639 nucleotides of DNA. Source: Escherichia coli (lineage in GTDB: Bacteria; Pseudomonadota; Gammaproteobacteria; Enterobacterales; Enterobacteriaceae). Below the pieces are notes generated by a model. That model was not told the origin of the DNA. It searched no databases and saw nothing but the letters and a program-made list of their open reading frames with translations. Below, in pieces: positions 1-639 of the stretch; positions within the stretch are counted from its first letter, which is position 1; each line of letters opens with the position of its first letter. The position numbers were made by a program, and so were the translations under genes. The stretch is from assembly GCF_003334405.1 (NCBI RefSeq), contig NZ_QOWM01000060.1; one strand, written 5' to 3'.

Positions 1-639
1 GACCGAAAGGAGACTGCCACGCATAATTTCTTCAGCCCTTTCCATTCAAACGTGAAATCAATAAGTTCATCAGGGACATCGCAAACAATATGAAGACGGA
101 TTTCTTCTCTGCCGTGACTCTTTTCACTCATTGCGTAACTGTCATGCGCTGGATTATTTAATTCTTTCAGCGGAAATTTTTCCTCAAAGGCTTTATTTAG
201 CCGCCCCTGGTTTCCTTTTACCGCGAATAAATAATCACCTCCCTGTTTTTGTATCTTCTCTGCAATATCTTTCTGGCAACCCATCGCATCAGTTGTGATG
301 ATTTTTCCTTTAATATCCAGCATGTTAAGAAGTTCTGGGATAGCTGTAATCTCATTAGATTTCTCATCCGTCTTGATCTGTCCGATGACCAGACTGTGCA
401 TTGTTGAGAACGCACTAATGACATGAATCGCTCCCCTGCGGCGACTCTTGTCATAAGAGTGCCGGAGCGTTTTTCCATCAATTGCAATGACGTCTTTATC
501 ATCTGAAGAATGGCAGTCACGCATCCAGTTAATAAAGCACTCGTGAAATTTTGCAGGACTGATACAGGATACAACTCTGGCAATGGTATCGTGAACAGGA
601 ATACCATTTTCAAAATCACCATATTGCTTCAAAAAATCG
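1..639 (-). CDS. ISAs1-family (H-repeat-associated) DDE transposase, internal fragment, 5' and 3' partial; complete codons span 638..3 and both termini lie outside the window
   Basis: Seen in sequence: manual translation of the reverse complement gives 212 consecutive sense codons with no stop, from GAT (Asp) at 638..636 to CGG (Arg) at 5..3. The other two minus-strand frames are interrupted. The protein is not low-complexity and carries motifs I recognise from ISAs1/IS4-like transposases: IAIDGKTL (Asp at 477..479), ITTDAMG (Asp at 288..290) and AVKGNQ (207..218). From memory it closely resembles the E. coli H-repeat (H-rpt) protein group (YhhI/YdcC/YbfL/YbfD-like), but I cannot assign a specific paralog or confirm identity without a database search. 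Confidence 0.85.
1..639 (-). mobile_element. Interior of an ISAs1-family insertion sequence (H-rpt-like element); terminal inverted repeats and target-site duplications not in window
   Basis: Inferred from the transposase CDS filling the window. ISAs1-family elements are single-ORF insertion sequences, so the window necessarily sits inside the element. GC is about 42% by manual count (266 of 639), which is AT-rich compared with a typical enterobacterial chromosome and consistent with acquired mobile DNA. Confidence 0.7.

Follow-up and report, generated by a model that had tools for sequence, protein, structure and literature searches.

The window, by which we mean the whole stretch of 639 nucleotides of Escherichia coli DNA that was analysed, is very probably the central 639 bp of the transposase gene of the 1,291-bp H-repeat (H-rpt), an element whose window-identical copies lie at the distal (3′) end of both the rhsB and the rhsE type VI effector array and which has been spread mostly by recombination; we put the probability of this reading at roughly 0.9. 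A core housekeeping gene adjoins one end of the element, and beyond the other lie Rhs toxin tips, immunity genes and the debris of older H-rpt copies. What the window represents is a multi-copy, apparently gene-converted repeat without a unique mapping, and its neighbourhood is a known Rhs type VI effector and immunity array. The element is ISEc1/ISEc5 itself, and its associations with Rhs loci and with O-antigen clusters are already in the literature (PMC3032704, PMC3715488). The result is textbook biology, not a discovery, and it matters little beyond annotation. For annotation, a short window of this kind may represent several loci simultaneously, and the informative DNA, namely the toxin tips and the orphan immunity genes, sits past the ends of the element.

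The window within the H-rpt transposase gene

The window has a G+C content of 41.6%. Six-frame translation yielded one frame that is uninterrupted across its whole length, minus strand frame 1, which encodes 212 aa; no other frame is open from end to end. The 212-aa fragment matched the curated NCBIfam model NF033564, 'ISAs1 family transposase', at 261.7 bits (cut-off 70, E = 8.3e-78), which places it in the ISAs1 family, and it also matched Pfam DDE_Tnp_1 and the C-terminal end of DDE_Tnp_1_assoc. Positions 1..639, on the minus strand, are an internal part of the transposase gene of H-rpt (ISEc1/ISEc5, ISAs1 family), covering codons 56-267 of 378, and the encoded fragment corresponds to residues 56-267 of the 378-aa protein YhhI. 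Numbered with the window as the plus strand, the window occupies positions 345-983 of the 1,291-bp element.

The match to the catalytic domain DDE_Tnp_1 (PF01609, i-E 2e-18) extends over positions 108..500 of the minus strand, corresponding to residues 47-177 of the window protein and to positions 3-126 of the 200 in the model, and the C-terminal third of the domain, which carries the catalytic glutamate, falls outside the window. Upstream of it in the protein, the C-terminal part of the N-terminal domain DDE_Tnp_1_assoc (PF13808, i-E 4.4e-10) was found at positions 522..638, minus strand (residues 1-39 of the window protein). By analogy with the DDE_Tnp_1 family, the putative first catalytic aspartate is D109 in the motif 'AIDGK' (codon GAT, positions 477..479, minus strand), and the putative second is D172 in the motif 'TTDAMGCQ' (codon GAT, positions 288..290, minus strand). 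The presumed third catalytic residue, E306 in 'HWHVENKLHW', lies beyond the low-coordinate end of the window and is present in the full copies. When YhhI was aligned with four relatives of 46-50% identity, D109, D172 and E306 were invariant across the five family members, so that the conserved D, D and E of the DDE domain agree with the assignment to the ISAs1 family, E306 being outside the window.

Comparison of 14 copies over the window region gave 49 distinct substitutions, 31 of which are synonymous and 18 nonsynonymous for the transposase. Division of the substitution counts yields a rough dN/dS of ~0.16, a value that indicates that the transposase protein is still under purifying selection.

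The program-made list of reading frames also contained a 134-aa ORF at positions 218..622 of the minus strand, in the +1 frame relative to the transposase. This ORF is open in 14/14 copies, including those with a broken transposase, and none of 2,000 synonymous-codon shuffles gave one as long. We nevertheless rejected it as an overlapping gene, because 41/49 substitutions are nonsynonymous in its frame and because in four relatives at ~50% identity the homologous region contains 3-9 stops. Most likely the ORF is no gene, although its unusual length is only partly explained. A search of the window for structured RNA gave no Rfam match at E≤1, and the rhsB junction region gave none above the gathering score. 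Repeats in the window are limited to a single 12-nt inverted pair, apparently a chance occurrence. The first-pass annotation had held that the window itself is silent on its context, and the analysis of the window bears this out.

Copies of the window and their Rhs-linked flanks

Megablast found matches to the window in 5,343/5,426 complete E. coli genomes. They amount to 24,143 places, the median genome having 5. Over all 639 bases the window is identical both to yhhI, the copy beside rhsB, and to ydcC, the copy beside the rhsE remnant, in K-12-like genomes, and the 100% matches are annotated variously as yhhI (ISEc1) or ydcC (ISEc5). These two K-12 elements, ISEc1/H-rptB and ISEc5/H-rptE, each match the window at 639/639 bases and are alike in their length of 1,291 bp, their termini, their 378-aa ORF and their location downstream of an rhs gene. 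They differ from each other at 14/1,291 positions, none of which falls within the window, and the window is therefore assignable to neither copy; as it is 100% identical to two separate chromosomal places, its context is ambiguous and it has no unique placement. One end of the window lies one base short of the first yhhI/ydcC difference on that side. The source sequence being 639 bases long, flanks were read at the matching loci, and those of the window itself are deduced from them.

A parallel for such ambiguity was seen in the draft genome of Escherichia whittamii, where H-rpt forms a contig of its own (NZ_JACSQI010000032.1, 1,144 bp). Its coverage of 45x far exceeds the ~9.5x of two further contigs from this assembly, and it is a collapsed repeat. 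By analogy, we conjecture that the 639-base window could likewise be a collapsed-repeat product of assembly or windowing.

The number of matching places also bears on the idea that the window came from a plasmid- or phage-borne copy, that is, from an actively mobile H-rpt in transit. This idea draws on 22 matching PLSDB records, one matching 'phage' record and the 23/24,143 E. coli places that are on plasmids. However, 24,120/24,143 places are chromosomal, and no plasmid matches at 100%, the best reaching 99.5%. Most of the matching records are either 'plasmids' of 0.2-4.9 Mb that resemble pieces of chromosome or very small fragments, and the phage record is an unannotated fragment of 1,547 bp. 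With no plasmid match at 100%, doubtful records and a chromosomal majority, we rejected this origin, which we regard as hardly credible.

The surroundings of the copies were taken from ten E. coli places fetched from the similarity hits and from the five places in K-12. The complete census of places was made in K-12 alone, while the contexts outside K-12 are a biased sample that represents the best place per genome, and four further strains were taken at evenly spaced ranks of the similarity-hit list. At all of these places a housekeeping gene (yhhJ, pptA, ybgA or yafV) lies on one side, and the opposite side is taken up by an Rhs/VgrG type VI effector array together with immunity genes and the remnants of older H-repeats. 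All five fetched places that are 100% identical to the window (L001, L002, L004, L005 and L006) are at the rhsB or the rhsE locus. The order at the rhsB site is nikR, rhsB, yhhH, a truncated HEAT-repeat gene (yibA'), H-rpt and yhhJ. The rhsE site runs from a partial rhsE through ydcD and a degenerate ISAs1 copy (~67% identical) to H-rpt and pptA. One strain has an intact vgrG-rhs-ydcD at a locus of the rhsE type.

The three remaining matches in K-12 are the abutting H-rpt pieces ybfQ, ybfL and ybfD, located downstream of rhsC, ybfB, ybfO and ybfC, so that 5/5 K-12 places are Rhs-linked. These pieces belong to the same element and share its Rhs-distal, co-oriented position; in contrast to the intact window, to which they are 95-98% identical, they are truncated or interrupted by stops and are arranged head to tail. 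In the four further strains the element was found inside a tssB-hcp-vgrG-rhs array adjoining yafV, inside vgrG-rhs-rhs arrays by pptA, or at the end of an rhsC array by ybgA. The transposase is co-oriented with rhs or vgrG in 7/7 loci that retain either gene, and the element is distal in the arrays examined.

Two strains depart from this order. ETEC6 has the same rhsE-type locus but has lost its rhs remnant beside an IS3, which occupies the position expected for ydcD/rhsE and adjoins a truncated yncG (L005 10907-13519). Strain MS1718 has vgrG followed directly by H-rpt, without an intervening rhs gene (L010 11342-14824). Both arrangements look like IS-associated deletions of the Rhs effector.

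How widespread the occupied sites are was estimated with queries consisting of the element plus 700 bp on each side, run against the 5,426 genomes. The occupied rhsB-type site, with both flanks, was present in 1,791/5,426 genomes, the occupied rhsE-type site in 1,274/5,426 and the occupied O157-type rhsC site in 441/5,426.

At every E. coli place fetched from the similarity hits the element thus lies inside an rhs array or closes it distally, no more than a few kb from an rhs core or tip and an immunity gene. The first-pass annotation had stated that H-rpt/ISAs1 elements are often found beside Rhs loci and had proposed that the flanks be inspected for Rhs genes; these are present, both at all E. 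coli places fetched from the similarity hits and at the five in K-12. Flanks of housekeeping genes only, with no cut ORF and no Rhs or polysaccharide locus, which it had set against its own expectation, were not the pattern that we found. Its broader suggestion, that anything unusual would more likely be in the flanks, held insofar as the flanks are informative, but their contents are Rhs biology that has already been described, with nothing unusual among them: type VI effectors with C-terminal toxin tips, cognate or orphan immunity genes and IS debris. Work on Rhs elements from C. W. Hill's laboratory in the 1990s reportedly agrees with the Rhs association.

Element ends, target sites and proposed recombination between copies

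What the copies at rhsB and rhsE have in common is a homologous stretch of exactly 1,291 bp that halts at both termini; H-rpt is therefore a discrete unit. All 11 full-length copies end in CAGGG(C/A)AAGAT...ATCTTTCCCTG, with terminal inverted repeats of 11 bp that agree at 10/11 or 11/11 positions. Seen from these loci beyond the window, H-rpt has the build of its family, a discrete element of ~1.2-1.5 kb with a single ORF and short inverted repeats. Of the hallmarks of insertion that the first-pass annotation had proposed to look for around the element, the terminal inverted repeats and interrupted genes were found, the latter being a yibA-like gene, an rhs gene and older ISAs1 copies that are cut at the ends of the element, but a target-site duplication was not: no direct repeat of at least 3 bp flanks any of the 11 full-length E. 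coli copies (L001 11657/12947; L002, L003, L005-L010).

ISAs1-family elements have target-site duplications of 8-10 bp in the ISfinder descriptions, a feature that the E. coli H-rpt lacks. A more distant relative was informative in this respect. The Photobacterium element, which has 52% protein identity and occupies 10 places in its replicon, is bounded by the termini CAGGGCAAGATCACG and carries, at L020 2905-4145, a clean 10-bp target-site duplication, GGCGAGAGGG, unlike any examined E. coli H-rpt; the terminal motif CAGGGCAAGAT is common to both. The ISAs1 family therefore does produce duplications, and their count of 0/11 in E. coli leaves no direct sign that H-rpt has transposed in this species. 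We read the missing duplications as loss after insertion and not as evidence against ISAs1 membership. The Photobacterium element, ISKpn31 and ISAs12 belong to the same transposase family and conserve D109/D172/E306, whereas they differ from the window in their protein identity of 46-52% and in being plasmid-borne or present in high copy number. For the plasmid relatives L021-L023, a crude search for inverted repeats and duplications gave no convincing ends.

The sites themselves were searched for in their empty state. A query of the joined rhsB flanks found no empty rhsB site in the 5,426 genomes; the single match to it (H118, NZ_AP025205.2 287417-288936) has an IS1B between the flanks instead of H-rpt. 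Where the rhsB site is occupied, a yibA paralogue reduced to its first 117 codons (of 280) adjoins the right end of the element, and the DNA of this yibA' is 97% identical to yibA up to the H-rpt junction. It corresponds to a pseudogene annotated 'HEAT repeat domain-containing protein' (L001 12944-13294) with an internal stop at codon 82. The remaining 163 codons were sought across the element and are absent on its far side. In K-12, yibA is located immediately downstream of rhsA, and from this position we take it to be the cognate immunity gene; yibA' looks like the remnant of an orphan immunity gene at the rhsB locus. The lack of an empty site is consistent with the endpoint of a rearrangement and not with a simple insertion.

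Further cut genes were found at other ends of the element. One of them is an rhs gene in L007, truncated by the left terminus of a full copy. In three cases a full copy runs, at its right terminus, into an internal position (~59, 771 or 911) of a co-oriented ISAs1 neighbour, so that the copies abut head to tail without a spacer (L003 12303-14926, L007 9001-10813 and L002 12947-14033). This abutment suggests either nested insertion followed by recombination or a preferred insertion into the element's own kind. A nested insertion in the same orientation, followed by recombination between the copies, would both yield the abutting pattern and remove one copy of the duplication.

On the yhhJ side of the rhsB site, the ~150 nt that separate the outer end of H-rpt from the yhhJ stop codon contain REP-like palindromic sequence (L001 11510-11600), and the same stretch matches places annotated as IS1397 (hits H65 and H131). 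IS1397 is an element that targets REP/BIME repeats. Genomes that share less of the yhhJ flank lose homology 67-154 nt before the IS end.

The distribution of the differences between yhhI and ydcC points to exchange between the copies. Their difference-free central run is 936 nt long and contains the whole window (11704-12639 in both L001 and L002), and 0/200,000 random placements of the 14 differences gave a run of 936 nt. From the run and this permutation result we infer gene conversion, and the pattern suggests that it probably took place between the paralogous yhhI and ydcC copies, which are ~2 Mb apart. A second trace is a 4.39-kb block found at both the pptA locus and the yafV locus with its T6SS cluster, at 97% identity (L002 11659-16047 and L007 3504-7891). 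It comprises H-rpt, the degenerate ISAs1 copy, ydcD and an rhs tip, and its homology starts at the outer terminus of H-rpt and ends inside rhs.

Taken as a history, H-rpt would originally have arrived by DDE transposition, given that a relative with the same termini has a 10-bp duplication, and homologous recombination would later have remodelled its copies and accounted for most of their spread. The modes of this recombination may have included gene conversion, passenger transfer with Rhs tip cassettes, recombination between nested or neighbouring copies, and deletions between copies. These processes would erase duplications, which could account for their being missing now. Judged from the junctions, with which such scenarios are consistent, the present E. 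coli distribution looks dominated by homologous recombination, without fresh footprints of transposition. H-rpt occurs in Rhs C-terminal tips, and no transposition of it has been observed (PMC3032704). A mobilome study of K-12 brings up ISAs1 only in noting that its circular DNA may be rarer than that of IS5, and ISAs1 is not among the five IS groups with raised coverage in that study.

The same observations have a more active reading, in which H-rpt is the vehicle that installs new Rhs toxin/immunity tips and hence a partner in Rhs diversification, not inert debris or a passenger. We consider this unlikely. As a first step, H-rpt would sit on the incoming DNA and its transposase would mediate a joint at the outer end; in a second step, homologous recombination in the conserved rhs core would resolve the structure and leave the element distal, co-oriented and without a duplication. 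The 4.39-kb block, which begins at the outer terminus of H-rpt and ends inside rhs, is what such events would leave, and the constant orientation, the distal position in the arrays examined, the 0/11 copies with a duplication and the purifying selection on the transposase fit as well; a similar model has been proposed for the Salmonella D2 O-antigen cluster (PMC3715488). However, passive hitch-hiking with later deletions gives the same junction patterns, many Rhs arrays, such as rhsA in K-12, gain tips without any H-rpt, and the absence of observed transposition (PMC3032704) weighs against a working transposase-mediated step. Nor does the main paper on the displacement of rhs C-terminal tips invoke H-rpt; as it leaves the element unmentioned, it neither supports nor refutes a role for it. 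If the vehicle were real, it would provide a mechanism by which polymorphic toxin arrays acquire new cassettes. Spread by recombination, with H-rpt as a passenger of the arrays, is the reading that we retain.

Polysaccharide loci and contexts outside E. coli

Besides Rhs loci, the first-pass annotation had named surface-polysaccharide (O-antigen) gene clusters as frequent neighbours of H-rpt/ISAs1 elements and had asked for such genes to be sought in the flanks. Part of this stands. The O-antigen cluster of O157:H7 Sakai has a repeat annotated 'ISEc1 partial' between manB (cpsG) and wbdR/gnd, which at ~935 bp is degenerate, full of stops and 85-87% identical to the window. A less diverged H-rpt copy (L015, 95.7% identical) adjoins manB, manC and two glycosyltransferase-sized ORFs. 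A distant relative, an ISAs1-family transposase of 51% identity, was found on a conjugative plasmid of Citrobacter portucalensis (L021 2977-4116), with GT4/GT2 glycosyltransferase genes on one side, gtrA and a GT2 gene on the other, and both IS1 and IS5 close by, a setting of polysaccharide modification on a plasmid. At the places that match the window at 100%, by contrast, polysaccharide genes were absent from all five that were fetched, and a location between galF and gnd was found for the O157 remnant but not for the window-identical copies. The O-antigen association is thus real for the family, but it does not apply to copies that are identical to the window. Studies of O-antigen clusters from P. 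Reeves's laboratory in the 1990s are said to agree with the association.

These copies leave little room for deriving the window from an H-repeat in or beside an O-antigen or surface-polysaccharide cluster, where it would mark a junction of recombination between clusters. The O157 remnant, the manB-manC copy and the relative among GT4/GT2/gtrA genes on the Citrobacter plasmid give this origin some substance, and an H-repeat remnant, for which yhhI was the reference, lies at the recombination junction of the Salmonella D2 cluster (PMC3715488). The remnants in O157 and in Salmonella group D2/D3 are of the same IS lineage as the window. The O157 remnant, however, has sugar-pathway genes and not Rhs genes as neighbours and is diverged and degenerate, whereas the intact window matches the Rhs-linked yhhI and ydcC at 100%, with 0/5 fetched 100% places in a polysaccharide locus. 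We regard this origin as very improbable.

Outside E. coli, an exact 22-mer from the window was scanned for in species-representative genomes and was found in 7 stretches, too few for statistics. One of them is in a type VI cluster with TssM, TagF, VgrG and PAAR-Rhs, neighbours of a kind seen in other Escherichia species, another is at a yafV/ivy locus, a third adjoins a VgrG fragment, and manB, manC and two glycosyltransferase-sized ORFs adjoin a fourth; the seventh is the collapsed contig of E. whittamii (L018). The two others share a pair of small ORFs as neighbours. This pair, of 147-151 aa and 188 aa, lies beside H-rpt in Pseudocitrobacter vendiensis (L014 19-1115) and in a Citrobacter MAG (L019 12092-13200). 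Neither Pfam nor NCBIfam gave a match for the pair by the Citrobacter and Pseudocitrobacter copies, and the two ORFs might be orphan immunity-type genes.
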